Shown here: positions 5,782 to 28,379 of the stretch, in pieces | Layout: the number at the start of each line of letters is the position of its first letter | How positions within the stretch are numbered: position 1 is the first letter of the stretch | NCBI GenBank assembly: GCA_037128175.1 | Contig: JBAXWY010000020.1 | Location: 1 to 46,714 of the forward strand | Origin: Methanothrix sp. | GTDB taxonomy: Archaea; Halobacteriota; Methanosarcinia; Methanotrichales; Methanotrichaceae | Direction: 5' to 3' | Length of the DNA: 46,714 nucleotides | The notes under the pieces: generated by a model | Databases searched by the model: none | What the model saw: the letters and a program-made list of their open reading frames with translations, nothing else | Told to the model about the DNA's origin: nothing | Translations under genes and position numbers: made by a program

Positions 5782-7470
5782 ATGTCGGAGAATAAGAGTT
5801 CCATTGAAGATGGAAATGACCTCATCCCAGCCAGCATGCTGGCCGCTTTCGCCTATTGTCCTCGGCTCTGCTACCTGCAGTTTGTGCAGGGCGAGTTTTT
5901 GGACAGCGCCGAGCTGGCCGACGGCAGATTCCAGCACCGTTGGATAGATGCGGAGCAGGACGCCGTGCCTGAGGACTTTGTGCCTTTCCACGCGAGATCC
6001 GTCTCGCTCTCCGCCCCGCAGGCGGGCGTGTGCTGCAAGATCGATCTTTTGGAGGGCGACGGCCAGGTCGTCACGCCGGTGGAGTACAAGCGGGGCGAGT
6101 CTCCCCGCGCGCCCGCGGGCCTGTACGAGCCACATCTGATGCAACTGGCCGCCCAGTGTCTGGCCCTGCGGGAGAACGATTTTTCCTGTGAAGAAGGAAT
6201 GGTCTACTTCATCCGCTCCAAAGAAAGGGTCCCGGTGAAGTTCGACGCCGCATTGATTGATCGAGCAAAGTCAATGCTAACGGAACTACGAAGCACTGTG
6301 GAGCGGGGCGAGATTCCCCCGCCCCTGCGTGGAAGCGTGCGTTGCGATCGCTGCTCATTGGCGGGCATCTGCCTGCCCGACGAGGCAAACCTCTTGCGAG
6401 AGATGGAGGCGGAAAATGCGCTGGTGGGCAAACCTGAGGAAGAGAAGATCAGAATGCTGCTTGCCTGCCGGGACGATCAAGTGCCGGTTTACGTGGTAGG
6501 CCAGGGCAAGACGGTGCGTAAGCGTGGAGAGCGTCTGGAGGTCTGGTCTTATGAAGAAGGCAAGGTGAGCGAAGCCCGGATCCGGGAGATATCCAAGGTT
6601 TGCCTTTACGGGGGTGCGGAGATCACAACTCCGGCCATGGTGGAGCTGATGCAGAGGAATGTGCCGGTGCTGCACTTCTCCCATGGCGGCTGGTTTCTTG
6701 GCATCTGTCAGGGCATGAGCCACAAGAATGTGCTTTTGCGCATCAAGCAATTCCAGTGGGCCGGTGATGAGGAGAAGTCGCTTTCCATTGCCCGGAAAAT
6801 CGTATCCGGAAAAATAGAGAACTGCAGGATTCTCCTGCGCAGAAATGACCCCGAGGTTCCTGCCGGGGTTCTGGAATCCATGGGGCGGCTCGTCGGCCGG
6901 GCGGAAGGCGCACCCAGCATGCAGAGTTTGCTGGGATTCGAGGGAGCGGCGGCGGAGGAATACTTTGGGCGCCTGGGCAGCATGCTCAAGAGCTCTTCGG
7001 GCTTCTCTTTCCAAAACAGGAATAAGAGGCCGCCCAGAGATCCGGTGAATACCGTCCTCTCCTACCTTTACGGCATCCTGGCCAAGGAGCTCTTCTCAAC
7101 AGTTCTGGCTGCGGGCTTTGATCCTTACCTTGGATTTTACCACCAGCCCAGGTACGGTCGACCGGCATTGGCTCTGGATATGATGGAGGAGTTCCGGCCA
7201 ATAATAGCGGATTCCACGGCGCTGACTCTCTTTAATAAAGATGAGCTGACAGAGAGTGATTTCATAAAGACTGGTATCGGCATATCGCTAACTCCTGAAG
7301 CTCGAAAAAAGGTTGTTGCAGGCTATGAGCGCCGGATGCAGATAGAGGTAATCCATCCCATCTTTGGCTATAAGGTGAGCAATCGAAGAGTGCTGGAAGT
7401 ACAGTCCCGGCTTTTGGCCAGGGTTCTTTCCGGCGAGATCAAGGAGTATCCGGCTTTCGTAACCAGGTGA
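5782..7470 (+). CDS. cas4-cas1: Cas4-Cas1 fusion (type I-G/I-U-like)
   Basis: Cas4 part: YCPR, KIDLLE..PVEYKRG, CDRCSLAGICLP Fe-S cysteines. Cas1 part: LLGFEGAAA, RNKRPPRDPVN, GFYH, LDMMEEFRP. Confidence 0.95.
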   Translation: MSENKSSIEDGNDLIPASMLAAFAYCPRLCYLQFVQGEFLDSAELADGRFQHRWIDAEQDAVPEDFVPFHARSVSLSAPQAGVCCKIDLLEGDGQVVTPVEYKRGESPRAPAGLYEPHLMQLAAQCLALRENDFSCEEGMVYFIRSKERVPVKFDAALIDRAKSMLTELRSTVERGEIPPPLRGSVRCDRCSLAGICLPDEANLLREMEAENALVGKPEEEKIRMLLACRDDQVPVYVVGQGKTVRKRGERLEVWSYEEGKVSEARIREISKVCLYGGAEITTPAMVELMQRNVPVLHFSHGGWFLGICQGMSHKNVLLRIKQFQWAGDEEKSLSIARKIVSGKIENCRILLRRNDPEVPAGVLESMGRLVGRAEGAPSMQSLLGFEGAAAEEYFGRLGSMLKSSSGFSFQNRNKRPPRDPVNTVLSYLYGILAKELFSTVLAAGFDPYLGFYHQPRYGRPALALDMMEEFRPIIADSTALTLFNKDELTESDFIKTGIGISLTPEARKKVVAGYERRMQIEVIHPIFGYKVSNRRVLEVQSRLLARVLSGEIKEYPAFVTR

Positions 7471-7476
7471 GTATTT

Positions 7477-7773
7477 ATGAGCGGACTGAATTGCTTTGTA
7501 GTGAGCTATGATATCATGGACAGAAAGAGGCTTTGTAAAGTTCATAAAGCCATGTTAGGATTCGGGCAGCCGGTCCACTATTCTGTTTTTCGCTGCGATC
7601 TCATTCCAAAAGGCCGGGTGGAAATGGTGGCTGTTCTTACCGAGCTGATCAAGATCGACGAGGATCGCATAATGATAATCGACATGGGTCCGACGGAAGG
7701 TGGAGTAGATGGTAGGATTGAGTTTCTGGGAGTGCACCATGAGGATAAAGAAGAGAAGTTTATTATAGTATGA
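7477..7773 (+). CDS. cas2: CRISPR-associated endonuclease Cas2
   Basis: VVSYDI, G-x-x-VHYSVFRC motifs; 98 aa; directly after cas1. Confidence 0.93.
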   Translation: MSGLNCFVVSYDIMDRKRLCKVHKAMLGFGQPVHYSVFRCDLIPKGRVEMVAVLTELIKIDEDRIMIIDMGPTEGGVDGRIEFLGVHHEDKEEKFIIV

Positions 7774-8023: not shown

Positions 8024-11000
8024 ATTTCCATGACTGAAAAGTCGTGGCTCAATTGAAACCTGAATTGCTTTTACAGCTCTCTTTAGGCCTTTCTCGGCAT
8101 TTCCATGACTGAAAAGTCGTGGCTCAATTGAAACGAGGTTACCGTCCCGATCAGGGATGGTCTGGAGATATTTCATTTCCATGACTGAAAAGTCGTGGCT
8201 CAATTGAAACCAGGAATCCAAGAGCTAAAATGAAAATCCCGAGCAAACAGATTTCCATGACTGAAAAGTCGTGGCTCAATTGAAACCCAACATTGTCGTT
8301 TTTCCTTCCTCTGTCGGTGTAATATTTCCATGACTGAAAAGTCGTGGCTCAATTGAAACAAGCTTTTGCTTTTGCTGCGGCGAGTTCAGCGGCCTTCATT
8401 TCCATGACTGAAAAGTCGTGGCTCAATTGAAACACAGCTGAAACTATTTCTGTCGGAGTTCCCAACTTTTATTTCCATGACTGAAAAGTCGTGGCTCAAT
8501 TGAAACCACTTTTGCTAGTCCGTTGAGTCTCATCAAAACCCCTATTTCCATGACTGAAAAGTCGTGGCTCAATTGAAACCAGGTATAAGTCGTTATCAAG
8601 TTCCGAGTTATTCGGTACTATTTCCATGACTGAAAAGTCGTGGCTCAATTGAAACGAACTGCTCCCGTTACAGGGTTAATGTATATTGTCTTATTTCCAT
8701 GACTGAAAAGTCGTGGCTCAATTGAAACCCTCCTTGTTACCGTAGGAGATCACGATTGCCTTGTATTTCCATGACTGAAAAGTCGTGGCTCAATTGAAAC
8801 CATTTGGTAAAGCTGGCATATTTGGAAGCGGTATTTTGATTTCCATGACTGAAAAGTCGTGGCTCAATTGAAACGTATATGATCCGAAGAACCCATTCAG
8901 AGAGTCCTGATCGATTTCCATGACTGAAAAGTCGTGGCTCAATTGAAACCCTTAGATGGATTAATAAACTCTTTTAGAAACGCCATCATTTCCATGACTG
9001 AAAAGTCGTGGCTCAATTGAAACTCTAGCATTGTTACGTTGATACGTGCTAGTGACACTAAATATTTCCATGACTGAAAAGTCGTGGCTCAATTGAAACA
9101 CCGCGTCATCGTAAGTGGCCTGTGTCTCGTCAATGTCATTTCCATGACTGAAAAGTCGTGGCTCAATTGAAACATTGAACCGCTTAGTTTTGTTGGCAAC
9201 GGTATATCGCCATTTCCATGACTGAAAAGTCGTGGCTCAATTGAAACGAAGGTTGGATCTAGGTCGCAAAGTAGGCCACCGCCTACATTTCCATGACTGA
9301 AAAGTCGTGGCTCAATTGAAACTGTAATAGCATGAAAACACCGATATATGCCATGAACACCGATTTCCATGACTGAAAAGTCGTGGCTCAATTGAAACCT
9401 ACCTTCTTATTAAGTACCATCTTTATACACCTCTCTATTTCCATGACTGAAAAGTCGTGGCTCAATTGAAACTTTTTTCCTGGCTGAATGAGCCAACGGA
9501 TTCTATTCCATTTCCATGACTGAAAAGTCGTGGCTCAATTGAAACTACACGCCATTAGATATTCTATCCAAGTCATTTAAAATCATATTTCCATGACTGA
9601 AAAGTCGTGGCTCAATTGAAACTGAAGGTGTCGAAATTGGTGTTGTATTCATCCATTGAATTTCCATGACTGAAAAGTCGTGGCTCAATTGAAACGATAT
9701 TAATGTTTTTGCGGAATTCATCGTAATCACCTTCAAGATTTCCATGACTGAAAAGTCGTGGCTCAATTGAAACGAATAATTTGTAATGTTCTTAGCTCTC
9801 TCATTCATATAATTTCCATGACTGAAAAGTCGTGGCTCAATTGAAACTTTAACATGGGATGACCTCCTAAATGCCCACATAATCATTTCCATGACTGAAA
9901 AGTCGTGGCTCAATTGAAACACCAATATTATATACTTCAAGTCTGTCCAACTTTTTGGATTTCCATGACTGAAAAGTCGTGGCTCAATTGAAACACTGCT
10001 GTCTTCATGTCTTTTACCTCTTTTCTATTAGCGTATTTCCATGACTGAAAAGTCGTGGCTCAATTGAAACTCCACATGTAGGCAATTAAATCTCTAGGGC
10101 TCATTTTTATTTCCATGACTGAAAAGTCGTGGCTCAATTGAAACCCAATATCCAATGTTGATTTTCGCAATTGTTTCTGCTGTATTTCCATGACTGAAAA
10201 GTCGTGGCTCAATTGAAACCCGGGAGTTGTTTCAAGCTTATTCGCAAGAACCTCGAAAATTTCCATGACTGAAAAGTCGTGGCTCAATTGAAACCCAATT
10301 GTAATCCTTGGTCAAATGTTTTGATATTGTGGCTATTTCCATGACTGAAAAGTCGTGGCTCAATTGAAACTTTCGGGATTGATATTATTTATCTCCCAAT
10401 TCCCAAATCATTTCCATGACTGAAAAGTCGTGGCTCAATTGAAACCCGAATACTGAAAGCACTGCGGCTATCACGACCAAGATTTCCATGACTGAAAAGT
10501 CGTGGCTCAATTGAAACGCAAAAGGAAAATGGCGCCGGGCATCTACTGATAGCTGGATTTCCATGACTGAAAAGTCGTGGCTCAATTGAAACCAGGCAAA
10601 GTACTATTGCCCCAGTCAAAATGCTTTCATTTCCATGACTGAAAAGTCGTGGCTCAATTGAAACTTTGGTTTCCGTTTTCTCTTGCCAGTTTTACGGTTT
10701 TAATTTCCATGACTGAAAAGTCGTGGCTCAATTGAAACAATTAACTTGGGTTAACATTTGGCTCACCTGTAACGAATATTTCCATGACTGAAAAGTCGTG
10801 GCTCAATTGAAACTCGACATACTGCAGAATTCGCGGCAGCGGCTTTTTGGGAATTTCCATGACTGAAAAGTCGTGGCTCAATTGAAACCCCAACACTTTC
10901 GTGCAATCCTACTCGGACGCCTGTATTTCCATGACTGAAAAGTCGTGGCTCAATTGAAACCCAAGGCGATTAAAGTACGTTTCATCCGTGTACGCAAAAT

Positions 11001-11927
11001 TTCCATGACGAAAAATCGTGGCTCAATTGAAACAAGTTGTTGAATTCTTCTATTGATACGTAGTCCTGTCATTTCCATGACTGAAAAGTCGTGGCTCAAT
11101 TGAAACTTGTACAACCTGTTTGTAGGTTGGCTGGGCAGCGTTTGCATTTCCATGACTGAAAAGTCGTGGCTCAATTGAAACGGGAGTATTTGTAGTCTAT
11201 GCCGTGACCACCTCCTGCTATTTCCATGACTGAAAAGTCGTGGCTCAATTGAAACGTAGCAGCTCTCGCCACCGCGCCGTTTGATCGATCCGATTTCCAT
11301 GACTGAAAAGTCGTGGCTCAATTGAAACCCGTCAAGGGAAGATGCGTCGAAAACTTCATAAGTTGATTTCCATGACTGAAAAGTCGTGGCTCAATTGAAA
11401 CCCTATAAAACCCAGGGAATGTGCTTTTTACCCAATGCCGCATTTCCATGACTGAAAAGTCGTGGCTCAATTGAAACGAGTTATTAGAGGGCTACTGGCG
11501 TCAACCTGGAACTGATTTCCATGACTGAAAAGTCGTGGCTCAATTGAAACGCGGAAATATTCCATAATCTGAGTTCCAGAGTCACGTAATTTCCATGACT
11601 GAAAAGTCGTGGCTCAATTGAAACACCAAGTGGGCTGTCTGCAAAGTTGGGCTTATCAATGATCTATTTCCATGACTGAAAAGTCGTGGCTCAATTGAAA
11701 CCTACTGGAAGAAGACCCTGGAAGAACTGCTGAACCTAGTCCATTTCCATGACTGAAAAGTCGTGGCTCAATTGAAACTTCCTCCGGACTCAATTGCCTC
11801 ACTTAGCTGTAGTCCTTATTTCCATGACTGAAAAGTCGTGGCTCAATTGAAACTAATTTACTACACCTAGTACGTCGTCATCATAGAACAGATTTCCATG
11901 ACTGAAAAGTCGTGGCTCAATTGAAAC
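8024..11927 (+). CRISPR. CRISPR array: 53 repeats and 52 spacers (36-42 nt); repeat ATTTCCATGACTGAAAAGTCGTGGCTCAATTGAAAC
   Basis: Repeats counted by hand. Hairpin CCATGAC/GTCGTGG; the 3' ATTGAAAC handle and leader position give + orientation. One variant repeat at 10999-11033. Confidence 0.98.
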
Positions 11928-12898: not shown

Positions 12899-14758
12899 TT
12901 ACTCGCCAAGGGACGATAGGATTTTCACCTCCACCTTTACCGGCACGGGATACAATAGCTCTGAGCCGATCCTTTCCATGATCTCTTGCAGCATTCGGGC
13001 ATATTCCTCCGCCCGCTCTGCCGGGACCTCCAGCAGAATTTCATCGTGAATGGAGCCGATTATCCTTGCCTCTTCTGAGGATATTTTATCGTAGACCTCG
13101 CACATCACCAGCTTGATGAGATCCGCTCCCGTTCCCTGGCAGGGAGTATTGTACATCTGGAATTTGGAAGCCCTAATTCCGGTTCCAAAGCGCGGCCAGA
13201 TCCTTCTGCGGCCTAAAGCCGTAGCGGTGCAGGTGAGCGGCAGGAAAAAGTATCCCTGAATGCAGTTGTGGAAGTAGTGCAGCACGGTGTAACTCATCTC
13301 TTGAAGCTGCCGCTCCTGCCAAACTCTAACTCCCTCATAAGTTTGGAAGAACCGGGTCTTTGCCTCCTCTGCCTCATCCAGAGACATGAATCTCCCGTAA
13401 TCGGACAAAACCCGCCACTGCAATGTCTTGGCCGATCCGCCGTAGATGAGCAGGAAGTTCATGATCTTCGCCGCCTGACGTTGCTGGTCCGTCACCTGAC
13501 TCATGTCGGCGCCACTGATTTTGCAGGCGGTTAGCCTGTGCAGGTCAACTCCCGCCCGAAATGCTTCCTGCATGGCCCTGTCCCCAGAAAGAAATGCCAT
13601 GATGCGTAGCTCAATCGCAGAGAAATCGGCCTTAACAAACCTCTTCCCGGCCTCTGGCAAGAAGAGCCTCCTTATGGCTGTGGCATCGTCCCCCTTCCTG
13701 GGAATCTGCTGGGCATTGGGATTTTTGGAACTGATTCTGCCGGTGGAGGATGGGATCTGGAAATAATGAGGATGGACCCGGCCATCTTTGGCATGAACAT
13801 GGCTTAGCCAGTTACTCAGAAATGCTAGAAGGTGAGATACATGCCTGTAACGAAGGACCGCTTCGGCAAAAGCACAGCCTGCGGCGGCCAGACCCCTCAA
13901 GATCTCTGCCTTGGTGCTGATTACACCGTAGCCCCGGCTCTTCAAAAAGGCCAAAACATCTTCCTGCCGGTCGGGATTTAGATAATAACTCAGTCTTTTG
14001 CCGTCCTCTGAAACTGTGACGAAACCTTTTCTTCTGGCCTCATCATGCACCGTCCAGACCAGATTGCAGATCTCATTTTCTTCGTCCTCGACTTTTCTTT
14101 TGGCCTGATCAGAGTCCAGATAAATACCCGAGATCTCCATCTCCGCCAGGGAGCAAACGGCTCTAAATTCCAGATCTGCAATCTTCTGCAAGCCGTTTTT
14201 AGCCAGGAGTGCTGCCAGGATGTCGTGAAGCGGTAATAGTACGGCGGATTCTTCTGCAGCTCTCCTTTCCGTCTCATTTTCACCGTCCAGGATAACGCCC
14301 AGATGCCTTTCCGCCAGGGCAGCAAGACTATGATCGGGAATATTCTTCTTCCAGGGATTTTTGGGGGAATGAGAGGGGGTAAGATAATAGTAGCCCGACC
14401 AGCAGATCTCTGAAGCAAGCATGAGGTCGAATAGATTGCGGGCATCCAGCTTTCGATTCTCCGAGGTCCTGATGAAAGCGAGGGCAGTCTTGGCATCGAA
14501 TAAAACTTTCCTGATCCGGATGTTCTCCAGGAGCCCGGCCAAATCGCTCAGAATAGTCTTTCCCAGTTCAAGGCAGTCGGCAATGTAGACGGTATGATTG
14601 GGGAGCGCGAGGGTTATAAGCCTGATTTCATGGCTCAAGGGGTCCGGGCCGGTCTTGAGCAGGTTCAAACCGCAAATCCCAAATTTCTCGATCTCTTGAA
14701 GCGCAGATTCCCATGATTCCGCTGTGGTAATGCAGGTTAACAGAGGGCTGATCGTCAT
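12899..14758 (-). CDS. polA: family A DNA polymerase (Klenow-like: degenerate 3'-5' exonuclease fold plus polymerase, no 5' nuclease)
   Basis: STGRISSKNPNAQQIP; motif A ADFSAIELRIMA; motif B RQAAKIMNFLLIYG; NTPCQGTGADLIK; motif C IHDEIL. Confidence 0.92.
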   Translation of the reverse strand: MTISPLLTCITTAESWESALQEIEKFGICGLNLLKTGPDPLSHEIRLITLALPNHTVYIADCLELGKTILSDLAGLLENIRIRKVLFDAKTALAFIRTSENRKLDARNLFDLMLASEICWSGYYYLTPSHSPKNPWKKNIPDHSLAALAERHLGVILDGENETERRAAEESAVLLPLHDILAALLAKNGLQKIADLEFRAVCSLAEMEISGIYLDSDQAKRKVEDEENEICNLVWTVHDEARRKGFVTVSEDGKRLSYYLNPDRQEDVLAFLKSRGYGVISTKAEILRGLAAAGCAFAEAVLRYRHVSHLLAFLSNWLSHVHAKDGRVHPHYFQIPSSTGRISSKNPNAQQIPRKGDDATAIRRLFLPEAGKRFVKADFSAIELRIMAFLSGDRAMQEAFRAGVDLHRLTACKISGADMSQVTDQQRQAAKIMNFLLIYGGSAKTLQWRVLSDYGRFMSLDEAEEAKTRFFQTYEGVRVWQERQLQEMSYTVLHYFHNCIQGYFFLPLTCTATALGRRRIWPRFGTGIRASKFQMYNTPCQGTGADLIKLVMCEVYDKISSEEARIIGSIHDEILLEVPAERAEEYARMLQEIMERIGSELLYPVPVKVEVKILSSLGE

Positions 14759-14890
14759 CTCATTTTCAAGAATGTTTCTTCAATTTATATGATGATTGTC
14801 CTCTATCCAAGCCACATGATCCATCGAATAGCTCGATGTCAAGAATAGTTATATCCATTGAAAACTATATAGCTGCAAAGGGGAGAAAAA

Positions 14891-15442
14891 ATGGATCTCT
14901 TTGACCTTCTTGGTAAATTCGCTAATATTGTGCAGCTCATAATGTTCTGCGTGTTTGTTTGGGCGACCGTAACCTTGCTCATAGCCAGAAAGAGGATAGA
15001 GCGAAAATTGAATTTGCTGGAAAAAGATGAGAAAAGCGTTCGATCAAAACGTCGCATCGCCATTGTTATTGGGGTCGGGAAGAACCCCCTGGCCTCTGTG
15101 GAAAAGTTCTTGGCGGATAATAACTTGGCAGACATTCCTATCATAAACTGGATCTCGGACGGATTTTTGCAGGCCGGGGATTACACGGCAGCAATGGCAG
15201 AGATCAATGATCTGCGCAGCCAGGCATTGAAGCTCGGCGTCAGTGAAGTACTGCTGTTCTACGCGGGACCCATCGACCTGGCCATGTTTATCGGAGCCAG
15301 CTTCAGTGACTGGGTGCCGATAAGAGTCTATGCCTTTACAGACACCGGAACTTACCAGCACAGGGTCACAGTGGGAAGGGAAGCGGCCAGATTATGCACT
15401 ATGACCGACGAACTGGTCAAAGGATTGGAAGGAAAGTTATAA
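14891..15442 (+). CDS. single-TM protein with SAVED/CARF-like C-terminal domain; candidate cyclic-oligoadenylate-sensing membrane effector
   Basis: N-terminal hydrophobic helix followed by a basic stretch. EVLLFYAGPIDLAMFIGASF...IRVYAF...GTY resembles the SAVED C-terminal motif. Located in a type III locus. Confidence 0.55.
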   Translation: MDLFDLLGKFANIVQLIMFCVFVWATVTLLIARKRIERKLNLLEKDEKSVRSKRRIAIVIGVGKNPLASVEKFLADNNLADIPIINWISDGFLQAGDYTAAMAEINDLRSQALKLGVSEVLLFYAGPIDLAMFIGASFSDWVPIRVYAFTDTGTYQHRVTVGREAARLCTMTDELVKGLEGKL

Positions 15443-15663: not shown

Positions 15664-15699
15664 CTTTCCATGACAGAAATGCCGTGGCCCAATAGAAAC
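15664..15699 (+). CRISPR. solitary degenerate CRISPR repeat
   Basis: CTTTCCATGACAGAAATGCCGTGGCCCAATAGAAAC: 30/36 ungapped identity to the array repeat, same orientation. Confidence 0.85.
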
Positions 15700-17149: not shown

Positions 17150-17312
17150 ACTTGTGCCGGTTTCAAGGCGTGAGCTGATCAGGCGATTGAGTAAATTGGG
17201 ATCTGTTGGTCCTTATCCTGGTGCAGATCATGAATATATGTCCCGGGGATTGGTAGAGACGCGCATTCCCAATCCTCATGGCCTTGCCTCTTCTGAGGAT
17301 ATTTTATCGTAG
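17139..17312 (+). pseudogene. hicA: HicA-family toxin truncated by a polA fragment
   Basis: PVSRRELIRRLSKLG..GPYPGADHEYM...IPNPHG; the sequence switches to a polA copy at 17282, removing the C-terminal helices. Confidence 0.75.
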
Positions 17313-17399
17313 ACCTCGCACATCACCAGCTTGATGAGGTCTGCACCCGTTCCCTGGCAGGGAGTATTGTACATCTGGAATTTGGATGCCCGGATTCCG
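17282..17399 (-). pseudogene. 118-bp relic of a second polA copy
   Basis: 112/118 identical to 13064-13181; all 6 differences are synonymous in the polA frame. Confidence 0.92.
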
Positions 17400-17665
17400 C
17401 ATCCAAGCCACAAATAGTCAGCTTAATAATAAAATATGAGATGTTATTTCTAAATTTTTAATATATATTACGCAATAAAAAGCTTTATCTATATGCAAAT
17501 ATATCTCTTGTGGAGGAGGGAAATTGAGCTGTGTGAAATCCCCGTTGAATTCAGCGTCGCGTCATTCTGTGTGGAAAATATGGACAGAACGCTCAGTTTT
17601 TCTTTGAATGCATCAGTAGGCATTGTCTTGACATTATCGTTATCGTCTTTTTGCGGGGCGAGACG

Positions 17666-18454
17666 ATGCCGATAAGACCTACTGTTGCTCGCTTTGCAGT
17701 GGCGAGCAAGAATTCCCCGCAACTTACCGATACCATAATTTTGGCGGATCGCGTCCACGCCGCTCTGGTCAGCCTCTCCAATGGCTCACGCATATTTACG
17801 GGATGTGACGAGCAGGGAAGACCATTGCAGGGCAACAGGCATGCGCATGTCTTCTGCGAATCCAATAATGCATTGGCAAAGGGCATTGATGGTGAGATCA
17901 CTCACATCACCATTTATGCTCCGGCGGGCTTTGAATCTGAGGATCAGAGGGCTGTGCAGGATCTGGATAGAGTCTGGGGTGGAGATGACCTTAAGATCCA
18001 GGTGATTCTGCAGGGATTCGGCCAACCGCAGGACTTTGGGGGCATAGATCTGGAGCGCGGCCAGTGCCCATTGCTGGCCCGCTCCCGCGCCTGGGTCTCT
18101 CGCACGCCTTTCCTGCCCACGCGCCATCCCAAAGTCACGCGGGCGGGCGTGCTAAAGCGGGACGCGAGCGGCCTGCAGATCGGAAGTAGCGAGCACGAGC
18201 TGAGACGGCTGCTGGGGCTGGCAGGCTTTCCTGAACCGGTTCTAGTGGAAAAGGTGGCCGGCACGAGCCTGGGCGGTCGGAACATTCCGTGGCATGCCTT
18301 CCTTCGCCGGAGAGAGACTGGCAAGGGAAGGCCGGCGGCGAATGGTGCAGGCTACGGCTTTAGGATAGAGTTTCCTCTGGCGGTGCAGGGGCCGCTGGCC
18401 GTCGGATATGCGAGCCACTTTGGGATGGGGGGATTTTATAATGGACAAGAATAA
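17666..18454 (+). CDS. csb2: stand-alone Cas6-like C-terminal domain of type I-G Csb2
   Basis: GRPLQGNRHAHVF, SRAWVSRTPF and C-terminal RAMP G-loop GPLAVGYASHFGMGGF; about half the length of full Csb2. Confidence 0.8.
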   Translation: MPIRPTVARFAVASKNSPQLTDTIILADRVHAALVSLSNGSRIFTGCDEQGRPLQGNRHAHVFCESNNALAKGIDGEITHITIYAPAGFESEDQRAVQDLDRVWGGDDLKIQVILQGFGQPQDFGGIDLERGQCPLLARSRAWVSRTPFLPTRHPKVTRAGVLKRDASGLQIGSSEHELRRLLGLAGFPEPVLVEKVAGTSLGGRNIPWHAFLRRRETGKGRPAANGAGYGFRIEFPLAVQGPLAVGYASHFGMGGFYNGQE

Positions 18455-18845
18455 AACCAGGGAGATCATTCGCTTTATCCTGAACGGATTCGAGGTGATC
18501 GACCTGGCGTACGTCTTTGGGTCTTTTCTGGAGCGAGATGACTTTCATGACATTGATATTGCCATCCTTCTCTGCAAAGAGCAATCACCCTATCAAAGGT
18601 TCAAGTTGGCTCAAAAGGCGGCCAGGATTCTTGAACAGGGAATCCAGCCGAGGGTTGATTTCGATGTCAGAATCCTCAATTATGCTCCCGCCTATTTTCA
18701 GTATGAGGTCATCAGCAAAGGGATAGTAGTATTGGAGAGAGATCGGGAGAGAAGAGTGGACTATGAAGCCGATCTAATATCTGAATACCTCGATTTGAAG
18801 TACATGTATGATCTCTTCGATCAAGCCTTCCTGGCAAGAGCCTGA
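18441..18845 (+). CDS. mntA: minimal nucleotidyltransferase (MntA-type antitoxin)
   Basis: AYVFGSFLERDDFHDIDIAI (GS...DxD), DVRILNYAP. Confidence 0.85.
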   Translation: MDKNKTREIIRFILNGFEVIDLAYVFGSFLERDDFHDIDIAILLCKEQSPYQRFKLAQKAARILEQGIQPRVDFDVRILNYAPAYFQYEVISKGIVVLERDRERRVDYEADLISEYLDLKYMYDLFDQAFLARA

Positions 18846-18846
18846 A

Positions 18847-18990
18847 ATGAGAGTGTTATCAAGTCTCAGAGAGCTGGAAATATCACTTAATGATTGGGAA
18901 AGATACCAGCGGTATTCCTTAGAGATGAGATTAAAGAGCTCTTGGGCAAAGGCTACTGATCGGCTCTCCGTTAAGGTAAATCCCGCTTAG
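18847..18990 (+). pseudogene. N-terminal fragment of a HEPN/DUF86 (HepT) toxin
   Basis: MRVLSSLRELEISLNDWERYQRYSLE directly after MNT; no Rx4-6H motif, similarity lost after ~18930. Confidence 0.55.
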
Positions 18991-19007
18991 CAGGATAGGT
19001 TGAGTAC

Positions 19008-19168
19008 GTGGGCCTCCCGCACGCCCCCACCAGTCCGGGCGCCTGCGCGTGCGGGCGAGCGGGCGTGGCCAGACGCGCGGGGGCAGCAGATCGGGAATGC
19101 GGAGCACGAGTTGGTGCGGATGCGGGGGCCGGTGGCACGATGGAGCGCACTTTGGGATGGGGGGATTT
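19008..19168 (+). pseudogene. decayed, internally deleted relic of the csb2 3' end
   Basis: 21-bp identity CACTTTGGGATGGGGGGATTT (19148-19168 vs 18416-18436), plus collinear blocks GCGGGCGTG, GCAGATCGG, GAGCACGAG matching ~18143-18200. Confidence 0.7.
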
Positions 19169-19281
19169 GTGGGTGATGATGACGAATTATGAGATATTGA
19201 GAACTTCAGGAGTGTGGTAAAACGTCACGCAGCATAATAGATTGTCCGAAGAAGCCATTTAATGTAGATCCTCATCCGGAT

Positions 19282-20517
19282 ATGATTGAGAAGCTCTACA
19301 ATATTCAGGTAATTACGCCGATATTCGGTGGTGGTGTCAAAGCCAACGAGAACGATCCTGTGACACCGATCAGGCCTTCAAGCATTCGAGGGCATCTCAG
19401 ATTCTGGTGGAGGGCAACGAGTGGTGCGAAATGCGCAACTGTTGCCGAGCTTCTACAAAGAGAGGGTAAGATATGGGGGACGACGTTGAATCCCAGTCAG
19501 GTTGGATTGCAGGTTGAAATAAAATCACCAGGAAAAACATACCCGTGTGCTTATTTCCCGGAAAACAAGAACTTTCCTCGGTTCGAAAGAAACCATCCAC
19601 CCTATGCGCTCTTTCCATTCCAAGGGAATAAAAGGGATGGCATTCCTCCAGCCAACTGTACATCCAATGTTTCTTTTGAATTGAAACTGAATCATCCAAA
19701 AAGCTTATCTCAGGATGTAGATGCTGCCGTTTGGGCCTGGACAAATTTTGGCGGAATAGGTGCCAGAGTGAGGCGTGGCTGCGGTGCGTTGTACTGCAAG
19801 GAGCTTTCCCCTAGGAGAGAATCACTAAATTCATGGTACAGATCATCCCTAGAGGGCTTTGGTGTTGAGTTATCCCGCTTGCAGGATTGGCCAACTCTTC
19901 CGGATAGATTCCTCGTCCAAGATAATAATAGTAACAATGTATTGCAGGGATGGACAGATGTGGTGGGCCTCATGCAGACCTTCAGGCAGGGCCAAGGCGT
20001 AGGCAGAAATCCTGGATCAAGCCCAAATCGGCCCGGTCGCTCCCGCTGGCCCGAGCCGGAATCAATAAGGAAGGCTACTGGCAGCAGATTCTTACGGCAC
20101 TCAAGGATGCCTGCAATCCCTGATGATGCCTTCCCCAGAGCAGAGCTAGGGCTGCCAATTGTATTTCACTTTAAGGATAATGATGATCCCAAGGATACTG
20201 AGCTATACCCGGTAGTCAGGGGAGAGGAGAAAACAAGAATGGCAAGTCCTCTGATCTTGAGGCCGATGATTTGCAGAAATGGAGAAGTAATTCAATTGAT
20301 TCTCAAGCTAAAATCCTCTTCTCCTGATGAAGTAGTGCTCAAAAAGGCATCAGGAAGTCCACGCTTCAAAAAATTGCGAGATCCTGCGCTGGCCAACTAT
20401 CCAAACTCACCCCTTGGCAGTCTGAAGGCTGGAGCACCAGCCCGCTCGTCATCAGGATCTGCTCTTGAAGGTTTCCTTGCCTTTGCAAAAGAATATGGAT
20501 TTGTAGAGGTGAACTAA
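19282..20517 (+). CDS. cmr1: type III-B RAMP Cmr1
   Basis: ITPIFGGG, IRPSSIRGHLRFWWRA, FGGIGARVRRGCG, RAELGLPIVFHF, RMASPLILRP. Confidence 0.93.
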   Translation: MIEKLYNIQVITPIFGGGVKANENDPVTPIRPSSIRGHLRFWWRATSGAKCATVAELLQREGKIWGTTLNPSQVGLQVEIKSPGKTYPCAYFPENKNFPRFERNHPPYALFPFQGNKRDGIPPANCTSNVSFELKLNHPKSLSQDVDAAVWAWTNFGGIGARVRRGCGALYCKELSPRRESLNSWYRSSLEGFGVELSRLQDWPTLPDRFLVQDNNSNNVLQGWTDVVGLMQTFRQGQGVGRNPGSSPNRPGRSRWPEPESIRKATGSRFLRHSRMPAIPDDAFPRAELGLPIVFHFKDNDDPKDTELYPVVRGEEKTRMASPLILRPMICRNGEVIQLILKLKSSSPDEVVLKKASGSPRFKKLRDPALANYPNSPLGSLKAGAPARSSSGSALEGFLAFAKEYGFVEVN

Positions 20518-22421
20518 TGGCATCGTATCTTTATGTTCTATCAATAGGGCCTGTTCAGGACTTCATCGTTGCTGCTCGGCGAACCAAAGACTTATGGTAT
20601 GGATCTTATCTTCTCTCCGTCATCAGTAAGGCCGCAGCAAGGGAAATTTCTCATTTAGGGGGATATCTGATATTTCCTGGACTTGATAAAAGAGATTTTC
20701 GATTGGAGTCCCTGGAAAGCGACTTTAGCGTAGCCAATGTTATTCTGGCAAGATTGCCTGACGGATGCGAAAGCCCGGAAGTAATCAATGAAAAAGCGCA
20801 GGATGCTGCCAAGAGAGTATGGATTGATCTGGCCGAAAAGGCAAAGAAGGAAGCTGGAAAGCTTGTTCGCCAGGATAAAATAGGGCAGGATATCTGGAAT
20901 GACCAGGTTGATGATGCAATCGAATTTTATGCAGCCTGGGTTCCAGAAGGTGTTAGCTACGATCGCATGAAAGTAATGCGGCTATTGGCAGGCAGGAAAT
21001 CAATCAGGAACTTCAGGCAGCCCAAGGGCTTTTTTGGCATTCCCAAATCATCTCTTGATGGTGCCAGGGAGAGCGTTATTCAAAGAGATAAAGCTCTTCC
21101 CAAATGGCTTTCTATGAAATTGCGCTTGAGTGATGCAGAGCAGCTCTGTGCCGTTGGACTGACCAAACGACTTGGCAGACGGCCGGACGGCAAAAATGCA
21201 GTATTTCCATCAGTCGTTCGAGTAGCTGCCGATCCGTGGATTCGAGGAATCAGAAGGCATCCTGGCGACAAAGCCAATAGGATTCTTGATGAGATAGAGG
21301 CTTGCTGCCGTGAAGGTGAAAACAGTTTTTCGACTGGCATAGGAGATAGGCTTTATCAAGAGTTCCGCTCGGACGGACATATTCTATATCCATCTCGCCT
21401 GGCCAGAGCTAAAGAGGATCTCAATGATATCTTAGATCAGGATGAAGACAACCCCTATATAGATGATCTCGTTAAGCTGGATCGAATTGAAAAAGCTGTC
21501 AATCAGCTGCAGAAAAAAGATGATGGCGGCCTGGGACTTGGTGAGCCTAACCAGTATCTAGCTGTATTGAAAGCGGATGGAGATCGCATGGGAAAAGCTC
21601 TTTTCACCATTGATTCAGTCGACAATCATAGAGCCTTTTCAGGGCTGCTTGCAGAGTTCGCGTCCGATGCAAAAAGAATAGTAGAAGAAGAGTATCACGG
21701 ATGTATGGTCTTCTCTGGCGGAGATGATGTCTTAGCTTTCTTGCCTTTAGATACCTGCCTTGGTGCAGCCAGAGCTCTTCATGATGGATTTAGAGAAAAA
21801 GGAGAAAAACTGACTGCACTTCAGGGCTATAGTTGCAGTCCATTAACGCTATCTGTTGGAATTGCCATCGGACATTACTTGGAGCCGCTGGAAAACCTGC
21901 TTAATTTCGGAAATGAGGCTGAGAAGGCCGCAAAAGATGGACGAGATGCTCAAGATGAAAGAGACGGCCTTGCCGTTCATATCTATCCACGGAGTGGTGC
22001 TCCCATAAAGATCAGAGAAAAATGGCTGCCCGAGAAGGCAAACGGCCTGGATGAACGTCTGCGCAAATGGGCTAAAATGCATTGCGAAAACAAGCTGCCA
22101 GATAGTGCTGCCTATGAAATGCGAGAATTAGCAGAGGATTACAAGGACTGGAAAACATCCTCAAAAGATGAGGAGGATAAGCTGAGAGATCTTATCGCTT
22201 CTGACGCATTAAGGCTTTTAAAACGAAAAACCGGCATCCTAGGACCGGCTCAGCTCCAAAAAGAAGACCTCAAAGGAATGTTGATGAATGCAGAGCCGTA
22301 CCAAGCAATCAGCAGAATGGCTTCAGAGCTCATCCTCGCTCGGAGGATTGCAGTTGCCATGAAACAGGCTGGAGATGAGAAATCGCCTAAGCAGGTAAGG
22401 CAAACTCAGGAGGTCGCTTAA
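20517..22421 (+). CDS. cmr2: Cas10/Cmr2, lacking HD domain, cyclase motif intact
   Basis: Starts SIGPVQDFIVAARRTKDLWYGSYLLS; LKADGDRMG; FSGGDDVLAFL. Confidence 0.95.
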   Translation: MASYLYVLSIGPVQDFIVAARRTKDLWYGSYLLSVISKAAAREISHLGGYLIFPGLDKRDFRLESLESDFSVANVILARLPDGCESPEVINEKAQDAAKRVWIDLAEKAKKEAGKLVRQDKIGQDIWNDQVDDAIEFYAAWVPEGVSYDRMKVMRLLAGRKSIRNFRQPKGFFGIPKSSLDGARESVIQRDKALPKWLSMKLRLSDAEQLCAVGLTKRLGRRPDGKNAVFPSVVRVAADPWIRGIRRHPGDKANRILDEIEACCREGENSFSTGIGDRLYQEFRSDGHILYPSRLARAKEDLNDILDQDEDNPYIDDLVKLDRIEKAVNQLQKKDDGGLGLGEPNQYLAVLKADGDRMGKALFTIDSVDNHRAFSGLLAEFASDAKRIVEEEYHGCMVFSGGDDVLAFLPLDTCLGAARALHDGFREKGEKLTALQGYSCSPLTLSVGIAIGHYLEPLENLLNFGNEAEKAAKDGRDAQDERDGLAVHIYPRSGAPIKIREKWLPEKANGLDERLRKWAKMHCENKLPDSAAYEMRELAEDYKDWKTSSKDEEDKLRDLIASDALRLLKRKTGILGPAQLQKEDLKGMLMNAEPYQAISRMASELILARRIAVAMKQAGDEKSPKQVRQTQEVA

Positions 22422-23656
22422 TGGTGCTTTATCTTAAAATAACTGCCCATGATCCGCTTATCGCCAGAGATGGTCGCCCGTTTGGCCTGGGAATCCGAAT
22501 GAAATCTCTAGATTGGCTCTATCCATCAGTTCTTGCCGGTTCCTTTAGAACTATGCTGGGAAATGCATGCAACAGCAATTTCGATGAGAAGACTTCTGAG
22601 GATTTAAAGCGGATTTCTATATCAGGTCCATTGCCATTCTGGCAGGGCAAACTCTATGTCCCGCAGCCGAAAGATCTTCTGGTCAAGGAAGAAAACAAGA
22701 AACGAGAACTCAATGCATTTGCTATTCGACCTGTGAATATTAATGGAAATGATTGGAGAGATTGTGGCTGCGATCTTCCAACGGGAGGGTTATATCCAGC
22801 AATGCTGCCCGGCAGTGTTGATGGCGAGTTTAAGCCCGCCAAAACTCCATTGCTCTGGTCGATGGAAACCATGAAGAAATGGCTGGCAAACGCTAGAGGT
22901 GAGGGCTTTCAATCTCCGCCCGATCCGGAGAAAATTTCGGGTAGAACTGACTTCTTGAATCTGCCTAAAAAAGAAGCTAGGACTCATGTCAAGATCGATC
23001 CAAAGGTCGGAACATCCGAAGATGCCAAGCTCTTCGAAACCATCGGGCTTGATTTCACTATCAAGGGCCAGGAAGAAAAAATCGAGCTTGTTGCCAGGGT
23101 TGAAGACGAAGGAAAATATGCAGATATTGCATCAAAGATCGATTCACTCAACTCTATCGGAGGAGAGAGGAGACTGGCCAGATGGAAGGCGCTCAAGTCC
23201 CAGGAGGGATGGACCTTCCCACTGGATTTAGCTTCTGATTTTTCCGGCAAGAAGAAAGTGCGTATGGTTTTAGCGACCCCAGCTATCTTTTCGGATGGAT
23301 GGGAGCCAGGATGGCTTAAAGACTGGCCACCGAATGAAGAGCCCGATTATTGGCCTAATGGATTGAAGCTGAGGCTCGTATCGGCATGCATAGATCGCTG
23401 GAAGGCGGTCTCCGGATGGAGCCTGGAGAAAAACAAGAACCGAGGCCCGGGCCCGAAGCGCATTAGAAGACTTGTGCCTGCCGGCTCAGTTTACTTCTTC
23501 GAGATTGATGGGGATCTGGATGCTGCATCTATTGCCAAAGACCTTTGGCTGAGATCGGTCTGCGATAACGATCAAGACCGACGTGATGGATTCGGCCTGG
23601 CTTTATGGGGCATTTGGGATTATGCAAACGAAAAGATGATAATAAAGCAGGATTAG
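22421..23656 (+). CDS. cmr3: type III-B Cmr3
   Basis: DPLIARDGRPF, IGGERR, LATPAIF, VPAGSVYFF, DGFGLALWG. Confidence 0.93.
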   Translation: MVLYLKITAHDPLIARDGRPFGLGIRMKSLDWLYPSVLAGSFRTMLGNACNSNFDEKTSEDLKRISISGPLPFWQGKLYVPQPKDLLVKEENKKRELNAFAIRPVNINGNDWRDCGCDLPTGGLYPAMLPGSVDGEFKPAKTPLLWSMETMKKWLANARGEGFQSPPDPEKISGRTDFLNLPKKEARTHVKIDPKVGTSEDAKLFETIGLDFTIKGQEEKIELVARVEDEGKYADIASKIDSLNSIGGERRLARWKALKSQEGWTFPLDLASDFSGKKKVRMVLATPAIFSDGWEPGWLKDWPPNEEPDYWPNGLKLRLVSACIDRWKAVSGWSLEKNKNRGPGPKRIRRLVPAGSVYFFEIDGDLDAASIAKDLWLRSVCDNDQDRRDGFGLALWGIWDYANEKMIIKQD

Positions 23657-23669
23657 GAGGTGCAAGATC

Positions 23670-24566
23670 ATGGAGAATAACACTAGAATGTACTGGTTGC
23701 AGACGATAACGCCTTTGCACGTTGGAGCCGGAAAAGGAGTTGGATTTATAGATATGCCTATCATGAGGGAGAAGGTCACAGATTGGCCGCTGGTTCCCGG
23801 CTCGGCAGCAAAGGGCGTGTTGAGAGATCACTTCTCCCAGAACGGAAATGATGAACAGAAGAAACTGATAGATGTCGCCTTTGGAAAACAGATCGTGGAT
23901 GACTCATCCAATGCAGGTTCTTTGATTCTCACCGATGCTCACATCGTCTGCCTGCCTGTGAGGAGCCTCTATGGAACATTCGCTTACATCACCAGCCCGC
24001 TGGTTTTAGAGAGGCTAAAAAGAGATCTCGAAGCGGCAGGCTACAATGACCTTCCTCCAACCCATAGTCCTGCAAGAGACGAAGTCTTGTTAGCGAATGG
24101 ATCGAAGATTTCCGGTGAAGAACGGGTTTTCTTTGAAGATCTGGATTTCAAGGCAAAGGAAGATGAAAATGCCCAGAAGTGGGCGGAAATGCTGGCAGGA
24201 GTAATCTTTCCTAAGGAATTAGCCAAAGATGCGGTCTGGAAAGGCATCTTTGAAGAGAGGTTTGCAATCCTATCTGATGATTGTTTCAACTTCCTGTCAA
24301 AGACTGGCACCGAAGTGACGGCGCACATCAGGATTGAAGATGATACGAAAATTGTGTCCAAGGGTGCACTCTGGTATGAGGAGGCCCTTCCTGCGGAGGC
24401 GATACTTGCAGGGATCGCCTGGTGCGACAGAGTTTTCGGCGGCAATGGGATAACCCGGAGCAAAATATTGGAAACATACTGCACGAAGGATAAGTTGGAC
24501 CTGCAGATGGGTGGAAAAGCAACCGTCGGCAAAGGCCGGGTTAGGTGTCAGTTCAGGAGGAGCTAG
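23670..24566 (+). CDS. cmr4: type III-B Cmr4 (Cas7-family RNase backbone)
   Basis: TPLHVGAG, IDMPIMRE (catalytic Asp), LWYEEALP, QMGGKATVGKG. Confidence 0.95.
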   Translation: MENNTRMYWLQTITPLHVGAGKGVGFIDMPIMREKVTDWPLVPGSAAKGVLRDHFSQNGNDEQKKLIDVAFGKQIVDDSSNAGSLILTDAHIVCLPVRSLYGTFAYITSPLVLERLKRDLEAAGYNDLPPTHSPARDEVLLANGSKISGEERVFFEDLDFKAKEDENAQKWAEMLAGVIFPKELAKDAVWKGIFEERFAILSDDCFNFLSKTGTEVTAHIRIEDDTKIVSKGALWYEEALPAEAILAGIAWCDRVFGGNGITRSKILETYCTKDKLDLQMGGKATVGKGRVRCQFRRS

Positions 24567-24570
24567 GACT

Positions 24571-24918
24571 ATGGACGAGAAGCATCAAACCCGACAGCAA
24601 AAGAGGGCGCAGAAAGCTTATGACTGTATTCTCTCCCGAGGCAAAACTGATGAAGAATATAGCCAGCTTGCTAGGAGATTTCCGGCCCTGGTGCAATCCT
24701 GCGGGCTGGCCCAGGCTCTGGCCTTTGTGGCGGCAAAGGAAGGGCAAACAGGAAGAGATTACATCGCTCATATCTCCCAGGTTATGAATGAGAAAGGAGA
24801 CTTGGGCGAGTCCAGCAGAAAATCGGATCTTATGAAATATCAACGGCTAACTTATGAGGCCATTGAGTCTGCAACCTGGCTCAAGCGCTACTCTGAGGCA
24901 CTACTGGAGACTGATTGA
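24571..24918 (+). CDS. cmr5: type III-B small subunit Cmr5
   Basis: QQKRAQKAY, FPALVQSCGLAQALAF, WLKRYSEA; ATG at 24571 chosen over the longer overlapping ORF. Confidence 0.92.
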   Translation: MDEKHQTRQQKRAQKAYDCILSRGKTDEEYSQLARRFPALVQSCGLAQALAFVAAKEGQTGRDYIAHISQVMNEKGDLGESSRKSDLMKYQRLTYEAIESATWLKRYSEALLETD

Positions 24919-26108
24919 ATATGGCTGATTCATGCAGAGCTGCTATCTCAAATTGGTGGACGCAGGAGCATCCGGTAGGTGCAAACGCCGGTCTACTCAG
25001 GGATAGATATCTGAGAGTGGCAGTGAAGGATAAGGCAAATCATCCCGGAGCACGCAGGGATCTTTTTGAGGTGATGCGTCAATCTCTGGTTCAATCGGAA
25101 GCGGTCTATCAGACTGCATATCTGCGTCAATTATCCGCCCGTCAAGAAAACTTGCTTCAAAAGCCTAAAGCGGAAGGCTTCTTTTGCACAAAGGGGAGAA
25201 TGGTGATTGGCCTTGGTGGCGAGAACGTCCTGGAGACAGGGATCACACTTCATCACACCTATGGTACTCCTTTAATCCCCGGAACGGCTCTAAAAGGCTT
25301 AGCTTCCCACTACTGCGACCAGGTGTGGGGCGAAAGAGATCAGGGTCAAGGCTTCAAGAGATGGATAAAAGGAGAAAACGGTGGCGAATATCACAAAGCC
25401 ATCTTTGGAACCACCGAGGATTCCGGACATATCATTTTTCACGATGCCTGGGTCACTCCCGAAACAATAGCGATGTCACTTCAGCCGGATGTTATGACGC
25501 CGCACCACGGCGATTACTATTCAGGCGAAGCAGCGCCCACAGACTTCGATGATCCCAATCCGGTCACATTTCTCTCCGTCGTGGGGACCTTCCACATTGC
25601 AGTCTCATGTGATGTTCCGGGAGAGGAAGGGCAAAATTGGGCAAAGCTTGCCTTCGATCTGCTCTCCGAGGCTCTCCGTGAGTGGGGCATCGGCGGCAAG
25701 ACCAATGCCGGCTACGGGAGGCTCGTCTTGGAGAATTTAGGTGAAGTGGATGGCCCGTCATCGGAAAATACAAAGGATTCAAAGCCTCCGGTTCCAGGCC
25801 CTGATGTGCAGAGGCCGTCGAAACCGCCCCAACCTGCCGCCAAGAAGCTGAAATACAAGAAAGGCGATACCGTGGAAGTTACCAAGGTTGCCGATCCCAA
25901 AGAGAAGCGAAGCGCAGCCTACTTCATGGCCGATGATGGCGTCGGTGGACAAGTTGTTCTGGGAACGCCGCCTTCTGTTGAGATGGGTCAGAAGGTCCGC
26001 CTGGAAATAAACGGAGTCATGGAAAAAGAGGGGTTGTACAATTTTGCCGCCGTTGGCGCTAAGAGAGAGCCCCCTCGGCAGGCCAGGGACAAAAGAGGGC
26101 GAAGATGA
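24915..26108 (+). CDS. cmr6: type III-B Cmr6 with C-terminal extension
   Basis: ETGITLHHTYGTPLIPGTALKG, DVMTPHH, PNPVTFL, GIGGKTNAGYG, then a Pro-rich linker and a beta-rich domain. Confidence 0.93.
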   Translation: MNMADSCRAAISNWWTQEHPVGANAGLLRDRYLRVAVKDKANHPGARRDLFEVMRQSLVQSEAVYQTAYLRQLSARQENLLQKPKAEGFFCTKGRMVIGLGGENVLETGITLHHTYGTPLIPGTALKGLASHYCDQVWGERDQGQGFKRWIKGENGGEYHKAIFGTTEDSGHIIFHDAWVTPETIAMSLQPDVMTPHHGDYYSGEAAPTDFDDPNPVTFLSVVGTFHIAVSCDVPGEEGQNWAKLAFDLLSEALREWGIGGKTNAGYGRLVLENLGEVDGPSSENTKDSKPPVPGPDVQRPSKPPQPAAKKLKYKKGDTVEVTKVADPKEKRSAAYFMADDGVGGQVVLGTPPSVEMGQKVRLEINGVMEKEGLYNFAAVGAKREPPRQARDKRGRR

Positions 26109-27355: not shown

Positions 27356-27630
27356 CCGCTCCCGTCATCTACTCCATCGCCGTCTCCTCGCCCATTACCC
27401 CTGCCGAGCCCCTGCCCCCGCTGCCCGAGATCCCCCGCGGCTCGCTCGTGATCGTGGAGGGACGGGCACCAATCTGGCGCTACGGCATGGCCCTGCACAG
27501 GCTGCACGGCTCGTCCGCTGCCGCCGTGGCCTTCTACGATCCGCGGCTAGGGGCGGTAGTGGTGGCCAGCCACAGCCGGGAGTGGCAGGTGGGCCAGGTG
27601 TTGGAGGTTACGCTGCCTGCTGAGCAGTAG
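27352..27630 (+). CDS. csx3: Csx3 (Crn3) ring nuclease
   Basis: VEGRAPIWRY, YDPRLGAVVVASHS. Confidence 0.9.
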   Translation: MTAPVIYSIAVSSPITPAEPLPPLPEIPRGSLVIVEGRAPIWRYGMALHRLHGSSAAAVAFYDPRLGAVVVASHSREWQVGQVLEVTLPAEQ

Positions 27631-28351: not shown

Positions 28352-28379
28352 TAGGATTGACATGCAAGATGACAAAAAA

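Follow-up and report, generated by a model that had tools for sequence, protein, structure and literature searches.

Gene and Surrounding Locus

The window analyzed here, a stretch of 46,714 nucleotides from the archaeon Methanothrix sp. (contig JBAXWY010000020.1), holds a type III-B CRISPR-Cas locus and, apart from its operon, a short gene for a protein that joins one predicted transmembrane (TM) helix to half of a SAVED domain. The relevant features are the following, with the basis of each assignment in parentheses.

5782–7773, + strand: cas4-cas1 fusion and cas2, the usual downstream neighbors of the gene in its relatives (profiles)
8024–11927, + strand: CRISPR array with 52 exact 36-nt repeats (repeat search)
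14880–14885, + strand: Shine-Dalgarno-like GGGGAG, 5' of the ATG (sequence)
14891–15442, + strand: gene of the 183-residue single-TM half-SAVED protein (ORF, profile, and predicted structure)
14927–14983, + strand: predicted TM helix, residues 13–31 (hydrophobicity and family alignment)
15044–15376, + strand: single SAVED C-terminal subdomain, residues 52–162 (profile, alignment, and fold matches)
15664–15699, + strand: lone degenerate CRISPR repeat with 6 mismatches, downstream of the gene (repeat search)
19282–26108, + strand: type III-B cmr1-cas10-cmr3-cmr4-cmr5-cmr6 (profiles)
20517–22421, + strand: Cas10/Cmr2 with DGDRMG (residue 354) and GGDD (residue 401), no HD motif (motif and profile)
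26105–27355, + strand: Card1/Can2, cA4-activated nuclease family (profiles)
27352–27630, + strand: Csx3/Crn3 ring nuclease, the usual upstream neighbor of the gene in its relatives (profiles)

The order along the window is cas4-cas1, cas2, the array, a PolA-like gene on the minus strand, the half-SAVED gene (divergent from the latter), the lone repeat, toxin-antitoxin and HTH genes, a csb2 fragment, a nucleotidyltransferase gene, cmr1–6, Card1, and Csx3. The half-SAVED gene is not part of the cmr operon: it precedes cmr1 by 3.8 kb and is separated from csx3 by 11.9 kb, and Cas10, Card1, and Csx3 are found 5–12 kb away from it. The initial annotation had placed an active-looking Cas10 cyclase and a ring nuclease at this locus, in agreement with the intact GGDD, with the DGDRMG motif, and with the Csx3/Crn3 gene. 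Apart from this Cas10, the genome of the window (G000, 99.8% complete) has no Cas10 palm match, and the genome-wide searches returned neither a second SAVED match nor a SMODS/CD-NTase match. RNA-library contigs from two studies cover positions 15131–15429 at a depth of about 3 with 2–4 differences, a weak signal whose source may be DNA.

The PolA-like gene (12899–14758, minus strand) encodes a family A DNA polymerase-like protein of 619 residues and is a neighbor of the CRISPR array. Archaea do not usually have PolA, and the gene is also found near the array or cas genes in four of the ten relatives' loci described below (L014, L016, L017, and L022); it may be a CRISPR-linked accessory. Type I-G parts are present within the III-B locus, here as in the relatives, namely the cas4-cas1 fusion (5782–7470) and the C-terminal half of a csb2/Cas6-like gene (17651–18454). 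Scars of rearrangement are seen as a 125-nt duplicate of a PolA gene segment (17282–17406), as a truncated ORF after the nucleotidyltransferase gene with another 3' piece of csb2 behind it (18845–19280), and as a degenerate second copy of csx3 (28375–28608), which flanks an MqsA-type toxin-antitoxin pair.

Membrane Helix and SAVED Subdomain

The ORF is intact, and the description of a 183-residue protein with one TM helix holds: residues 13–31 are strongly hydrophobic (Kyte-Doolittle 19-mer value of 2.51) and are followed by the basic segment ARKRIERK. The AlphaFold2 model of the protein (pLDDT 91) comprises a long helix (2–49), a five-stranded α/β domain (55–161), and a helical C-terminal tail. 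The Rossmann-like first strand pointed out in the initial annotation, RIAIVIGVG, corresponds to strand 1 of the model (residues 55–62), and the SAVED-like motif, LFYAGPIDLAMFIG...VY...Y, is present at residues 122–155. A second hydrophobic stretch (120–138) forms a core strand and helix of the domain in the model and is not a TM segment; a hydrophobic core stretch of CalpL has likewise been mispredicted as TM (10.1101/2021.12.06.471393).

Both SAVED profiles match through their C-terminal half only. Pfam PF18145 gives an E value of 1.7e-8 and 34.9 bits, against a cutoff of 26.2, over model positions 68–189 of 190, while NCBIfam NF033611 scores 41.2, against a cutoff of 33, over positions 137–258 of 261, and at E 0.01 the latter matches all 109 aligned family rows. 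A wide fold search with VIA-align gave SAVED domains at all of ranks 1–12, each aligned over one C-terminal subdomain of about 110 residues, with Z 13.7, an rmsd of 2.0, and 106 aligned residues for the SAVED domain of Cap5 (8ysq), and Z 12.8, an rmsd of 2.5, and 115 aligned residues for AcrIII-2/Crn5 (9r8s). The best CARF domain in this search has Z 8.7, below the SAVED ranks. The Foldseek comparison that had been proposed against SAVED and CARF also yields a SAVED fold, the top match being that of Cap4 (E 3.6e-5). Among solved structures, CalpL (2e-13) and AcrIII-2 (7e-12) are the best sequence matches of the family profile, each with two matched stretches, one per SAVED half. The protein has a single subdomain in both profile and model rather than the two tandem subdomains that a canonical SAVED carries in one chain. 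The suggestion of a short, half SAVED was thus correct, whereas of the label "SAVED/CARF-like" only the first part stands.

The core residues of the family are F123, G126–P127, G135, N/D140–W141, and Y155, and the 109-row alignment keeps F123, P127, G135, and Y155 together with an N-W-x-P-V motif. A full SAVED consists of two pseudo-symmetric halves, the axis running between two hydrophobic helices (10.1101/2021.12.06.471393). The counterpart of the axis helix, residues 128–138 with the small residues A131, G135, and A136, is conserved in the family, and in view of the two-half symmetry of SAVED a homodimer that rebuilds the pocket is the natural inference. The prediction of a homodimeric complex (two copies, alignment A2) gave a median of 0.33 against a mark of 0.42, with the controls at 0.00.

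An N-terminal hydrophobic helix exceeds the threshold in 97 of the 109 family rows, and in 96 of these Lys and Arg are more abundant after the helix than before it (on average 5.2 versus 0.66). This enrichment implies a cytoplasmic sensor domain, with the N-terminus presumably outside and the C-terminus inside. The helix carries a conserved stripe of small or polar residues at positions 8, 11, 12, 15, 18, 22, and 25 (62–95% of the rows), such residues being found, for example, in 103 of 108 rows at position 8, 98 of 109 at position 11, 103 of 109 at position 15, and 95 of 108 at position 18. The periodicity of the stripe peaks at 105°, a value equalled by 9 of 10,000 shuffles. Asn, Asp, Gln, or Glu at position 12 or 15 is seen in 67 of the 109 rows; Asn or Asp at position 12 is limited to about half of the rows, and the candidate pore-lining polar residues vary. 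The single helix of Cam1 has a conserved Asp (D17) that lines the predicted pore (PMC10808066). Judged by sequence, the stripe in the present family would fit helix–helix packing or dimerization as well as pore lining and does not discriminate between them, but its conservation suggests that the TM helix is more than a mere anchor.

Relatives and Their Genomic Neighborhoods

A word-based search retrieved 12 proteins. Among 1.84 billion representatives, a profile search gave 188 matches at E ≤0.001, of which the best 150 were listed. The protein set used here counts 161 members, and most relatives have 160–210 residues. The 118 members of 158–210 residues have one N-terminal hydrophobic helix in 100 cases, two in 1, and none in 17. 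The nearest cluster in the Atlas has 928 members of about 182 residues, 70% of them labeled SAVED. Two PADLOC profiles already describe such proteins: PDLC01160 ("CARF, 2 TMs", 172 positions) matches 93 of the 109 family rows with a best E value of 4.6e-38, and PDLC02011 (SAVED4--SAVED_TM) matches all 109 with a best E value of 8e-35. For the protein of the window, the values are 2.1e-8 (residues 13–156) and 3.4e-12 (residues 16–156), respectively. With these matches, the proposal of a "new" effector in the initial annotation was overstated.

A 2018 preprint by Shmakov et al. (10.1101/270033) reported CARF proteins with two TM segments in III-A, B, and D loci, with predicted oligoA sensing. 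TM-SAVED effectors are also mentioned, as predictions, in a 2022 review. To judge from the wording, the PADLOC "CARF, 2 TMs" profile would represent the proteins of the preprint. The two PADLOC entries share with the present family the length (172 positions in PDLC01160) and the III-A/B/D contexts, but the family has one SAVED half rather than a CARF domain and one true TM helix rather than two; the two-TM label is probably an old misprediction of the core hydrophobic stretch. The profile matches, the preprint, and the review together indicate that the family is already catalogued by bioinformatics. Neither the effectors covered by the 2024 survey nor the 2025 classification table, in its rows on SAVED and on membrane proteins, include it, as far as the accessible parts of these sources go, and no experimental study of it was found in a literature coverage that leaves most subscription papers outside. 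The half-SAVED sensor with one helix is likely a variant within the cOA-gated membrane effectors, a class already known. Further source literature is found under PMC11229360, PMC13462974, PMC9704534, PMC12751052, PMC13148439, and PMC12669027, and in the preprints 10.1101/2025.11.13.688252 and 10.64898/2026.09.16.751991.

In Methanotrichaceae, the family of the host, 12 of 105 genomes have a half-SAVED match. The loci of 10 of the 11 other genomes were examined, G059 with a weak partial match being left out. In 8 of these 10 loci csx3 immediately precedes the gene (in one as a frameshifted remnant); cas4-cas1 follows it directly in 6, and in 5 it is preceded by a III-B operon that includes Cas10. 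The protein of the window is 81–82% identical to the in-operon copies. These neighborhoods place the ancestral slot of the gene at the end of a type III operon, in the order csx3-gene-cas1, and indicate that the copy of the window was moved by local rearrangement, of which the lone repeat is likely a scar. The same displaced arrangement is seen in L016, and two of the ten loci have broken copies, frameshifted in L022 and truncated after codon 46 in L023. An intact copy in G029 adjoins a III-C operon with a Cas10 devoid of GGDD, a finding that disfavors a strict dependence on the cyclase. Among the 12 carrier genomes, 9 have a strong Cas10 match, compared to 41 of the 105 over the cutoff overall, kin not being independent in these counts. 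No Cas10 match was obtained in G053 (98% identical protein) and G059, genomes that are only 77–78% complete.

A degenerate motif derived from the protein alone, and hence blind to CRISPR, was searched in GTDB genomes and retrieved 53 loci; it covers 49 of the 109 family rows. The loci come from Chloroflexota, Acidobacteriota, Brocadiaceae, Nitrospirota, Bacteroidales, Deinococcales, several archaea, and others. All 53 are counted in what follows, including six known Methanotrichaceae loci, a caspase fusion (L036), and a chance match (L076) to what is presumably a prolyl-tRNA synthetase. In a local tblastn search with queries taken from the window and from the motif loci themselves, and with kin not independent, type III core genes were found in 33 loci, only other cas or ring-nuclease genes in 15, and none in 5; for the 31 loci of at least 8 kb the numbers are 27, 3, and 1. 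The linkage to type III systems foreseen in the initial annotation is thus borne out by the homologs. Subtypes A, B, and D are represented among the motif loci, next to III-B in the window, and GGDD is present in 21 of the 23 Cas10s examined (motif loci, relatives' loci, and window). No link to CBASS was seen: CD-NTase families are missing from the 148 neighbors scanned with Pfam (E 1e-7) and from another 80, selected ones, scanned with NCBIfam (E 1e-12).

A ring-nuclease-type gene is located within 1.2 kb in 35 of the 53 loci, namely 16 Csx3, 15 Csx15, 1 Csx20, and 3 Csx3-like genes, the last three assigned by eye only. According to PMC12409355, ring nucleases accompany only cA4 effectors, with a frequency of 39% across the loci of such effectors and of 81% across those of Cam1, and two ring nucleases occur in only about 4% of ring-nuclease loci, Csx15 with Crn1 being an exception. 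The adjacent ring nucleases and these figures fit an effector without an off-switch of its own. The co-encoded effectors include cA4 types (Card1/Can2, Csx1, Cami1, Cam1-like, and Cash), with Csm6-like genes in some loci. No locus with the half-SAVED gene as sole effector was established: a Card1-like or Csm6-like gene is present in four of the five loci extended upstream, contig ends truncate L027, L052, and L062, and L054 remains a candidate, with no CARF effector detected in it.

Several neighbors of the gene were observed along with these. L054, a III-D locus, has an M48 peptidase gene (630–1877) upstream of Cas10 and a gene for a hydrophobic 315-residue protein (10383–11327) downstream. 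L074 has two adjacent half-SAVED genes (617–1141 and 1162–1683), one of them divergent and the other with an N-terminus clearly of the TM type, and csm3/csm4-like genes nearby; the pair possibly forms a heterodimer. A family of 103–121 residues, Csx3-like by eye, lies directly upstream of the gene in L029 (1215–1577), L030 (2482–2790), and L056 (9251–9571); it has no PADLOC match, nor a Pfam match for the one member tested, and is possibly a new ring-nuclease subfamily. Between csm6 and the gene, L042 (9245–9604) and L044 (2270–2608) encode a small protein with an N-terminal DFDG, which we take to be HAD-like and which gave no family match (PADLOC for both loci, Pfam for one). An AAA ATPase with a partner of about 260–340 residues is encoded between the III-D core genes and the gene in L031, L057, L061, L067, and L073, and a Schlafen-Csx15 fusion of Cash type (L045, 1284–2177) adjoins a stand-alone Csx15 and the half-SAVED gene.

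The same single half-domain is also found fused to a Cap12-type TIR domain in four proteins (P0092, P0097, P0138, and P0144), to a caspase in P0074, and to Schlafen-type domains in P0027 and P0160. In a FastTree phylogeny of 137 of the 161 proteins, rooted on full SAVED and with 24 short matches dropped, these fusions are nested among the TM members with moderate support. The fusion pattern and the nesting suggest a sensor with swappable effector modules, and the TIR, caspase, and Schlafen fusions are candidate effectors. The caspase fusion gene (L036, 4552–5664) stands at the end of its locus, in which no cas genes are seen, and a search for the context of the TIR fusions gave 80 loci, none with the half-domain.

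Proposed Mode of Action and Relation to Known Systems

One SAVED half, a membrane helix, and relatives in type III loci together make self-pairing and cA4 binding likely, and depolarization would follow. In the mechanism that we propose, cA4 would be made by Cas10, and two half-SAVED copies would pair into a symmetric SAVED pocket that likely binds it; the dimers may stack head-to-tail, as SAVED and Csx15 do. Binding of cA4 would then draw the membrane helices together or rearrange them, and the resulting ion leak would depolarize the membrane in the manner of Cam1, with toxicity and growth arrest as the outcome, until Csx3 clears the signal and resets the system. We consider this scenario of a cA4-binding, depolarizing homodimer, which agrees with the oligomeric pore-type effector suggested in the initial annotation, to be probable. 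Against it speak the other effector genes near the gene in many of the larger loci and the displacement of the gene from the operon in the window.

It is unlikely, in our assessment, that the dimer instead tempers Card1/Csx1 at the membrane, as a cA4 sponge or slow ring nuclease for which the helix would be an anchor or a dimerization aid. Such a role is favored by the ring-nuclease activity of the nearest solved relatives by sequence (the SAVED of CalpL and AcrIII-2/Crn5), by Csx15, the other known half-SAVED-like family, being a ring nuclease or sponge, by the frequent presence of another effector in the same locus, and by the gene often occupying the position of a ring nuclease at the end of the operon. 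However, CalpL H396 and AcrIII-2 H128, which matter for cleavage, align here with Lys64, and AcrIII-2 S194, which also matters for it, aligns with Ala125 (HMM alignment, with chain offsets derived in this analysis). A His anywhere in the catalytic loop is present in only 6 of the 109 family rows, mostly out of register, and Ser at position 125 in only 12. With the catalytic His and Ser absent from its sequence, the protein does not appear to be a ring nuclease of the CalpL/Crn5 type. The basic stretch after the helix does align with the catalytic R96/K99 of AcrIII-2 and could retain cA4-contact or catalytic roles, but the positive-inside rule accounts for it equally well. In addition, a dedicated ring-nuclease-type gene is already adjacent in 35 of the 53 loci, double ring-nuclease loci being reported as rare, in other proteins the half-domain is joined to toxic enzymes, and the motif gave 0 matches in viral contigs.

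The gene pair of L074, with its second, divergent half-SAVED gene directly downstream, and the M48 peptidase and hydrophobic protein of L054 would be expected of a membrane-bound receptor dependent on a partner (another half-SAVED, a membrane protein, or a protease) and with signaling or proteolysis rather than an ion leak as its output, and CalpL, the closest SAVED clade, does act via partners. We regard this as quite improbable, as the all-against-all clustering of neighbors gave no conserved partner family besides cas genes and ring nucleases, and the genome of the window has only one SAVED match. That the family is an effector but the copy of the window a displaced relic out of use, as its separation from csx3 and cas1, the nearby lone repeat, csb2 fragment, and toxin-antitoxin genes, and the broken copies in two of the ten relatives' loci might suggest, is very unlikely given an intact, full-length ORF with a ribosome-binding site and 81–82% identity to in-operon copies, and gene position carries little weight since cOA diffuses.

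Beyond the homodimeric, depolarizing effector favored above, we tentatively suggest that the family represents a widespread class of single-subdomain cOA effectors, in which the homodimer would be equivalent to a two-fold symmetric SAVED and the module is swapped among a TM helix, TIR, caspase, and Schlafen, distinct from Csx15. The TM form, which possibly stacks head-to-tail along the membrane, would be the first SAVED-gated membrane effector of type III systems and, in archaea, among the first. If so, type III CRISPR would gain a membrane effector missing from the available parts of the 2024 survey and the 2025 table, and with 183 residues the protein would be a very small system in which to follow how cyclic-nucleotide binding reaches a membrane helix.

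Among the closest known systems, CalpL (9EYI, 7QDA) and AcrIII-2/Crn5 (9R8S) of the SAVED4 clade share the subdomain fold and the type III context. CalpL and AcrIII-2/Crn5 are, however, soluble ring nucleases with a full two-half SAVED and a catalytic His, whereas the protein of the window has one half, a TM helix, and no such His. In architecture the family resembles Cam1, which has an N-terminal single TM helix and a C-terminal cOA-type sensor in about 200 residues, polar TM residues, and a high co-occurrence with ring nucleases; it differs in that Cam1 uses a canonical CARF domain (CARF8) and the present family a SAVED-type fold. Identity with Cam1 was rejected, since no CARF8/Cam1 profile is among the 18 PADLOC matches at E 0.01, while a true neighbor in L065 (9352–10233) does match these profiles. 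Csx23, Cap1, Cam2, and Cam3 are also membrane effectors tied to cyclic nucleotides, but have non-SAVED sensors and were rejected for this difference in domain type, and Cap14, a CBASS effector, and 3TM-SAVED are membrane proteins of this kind with full SAVEDs. No Csx15, Cam1, or Csx23 chain is among the fold-search matches listed.

Csx15, Cash, and TMH-Csx15 are similar to the present family in having a single SAVED-half-like dimeric unit that is fused to Schlafen or TM helices, and the Csx15 dimer has been described as analogous to one SAVED monomer (10.64898/2026.10.26.761840). Csx15 nevertheless shows no detectable profile similarity and is a separate family, although a frequent neighbor (15 of the 53 loci). 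Membership in it was ruled out by an HHalign probability of 0.03 (against 8 neighbor proteins with His8, one of them confirmed as Csx15 by PADLOC), by the lack of a Csx15 PADLOC match, and by Lys64 in place of His8. These relations bear on the debated origin of SAVED, for which duplication of CARF or, as argued in a 2026 preprint, of Csx15 has been considered. The present family is a free single subdomain whose sequence is much closer to the SAVED halves than to Csx15, and it would be either an ancestor of SAVED or a later fission product.
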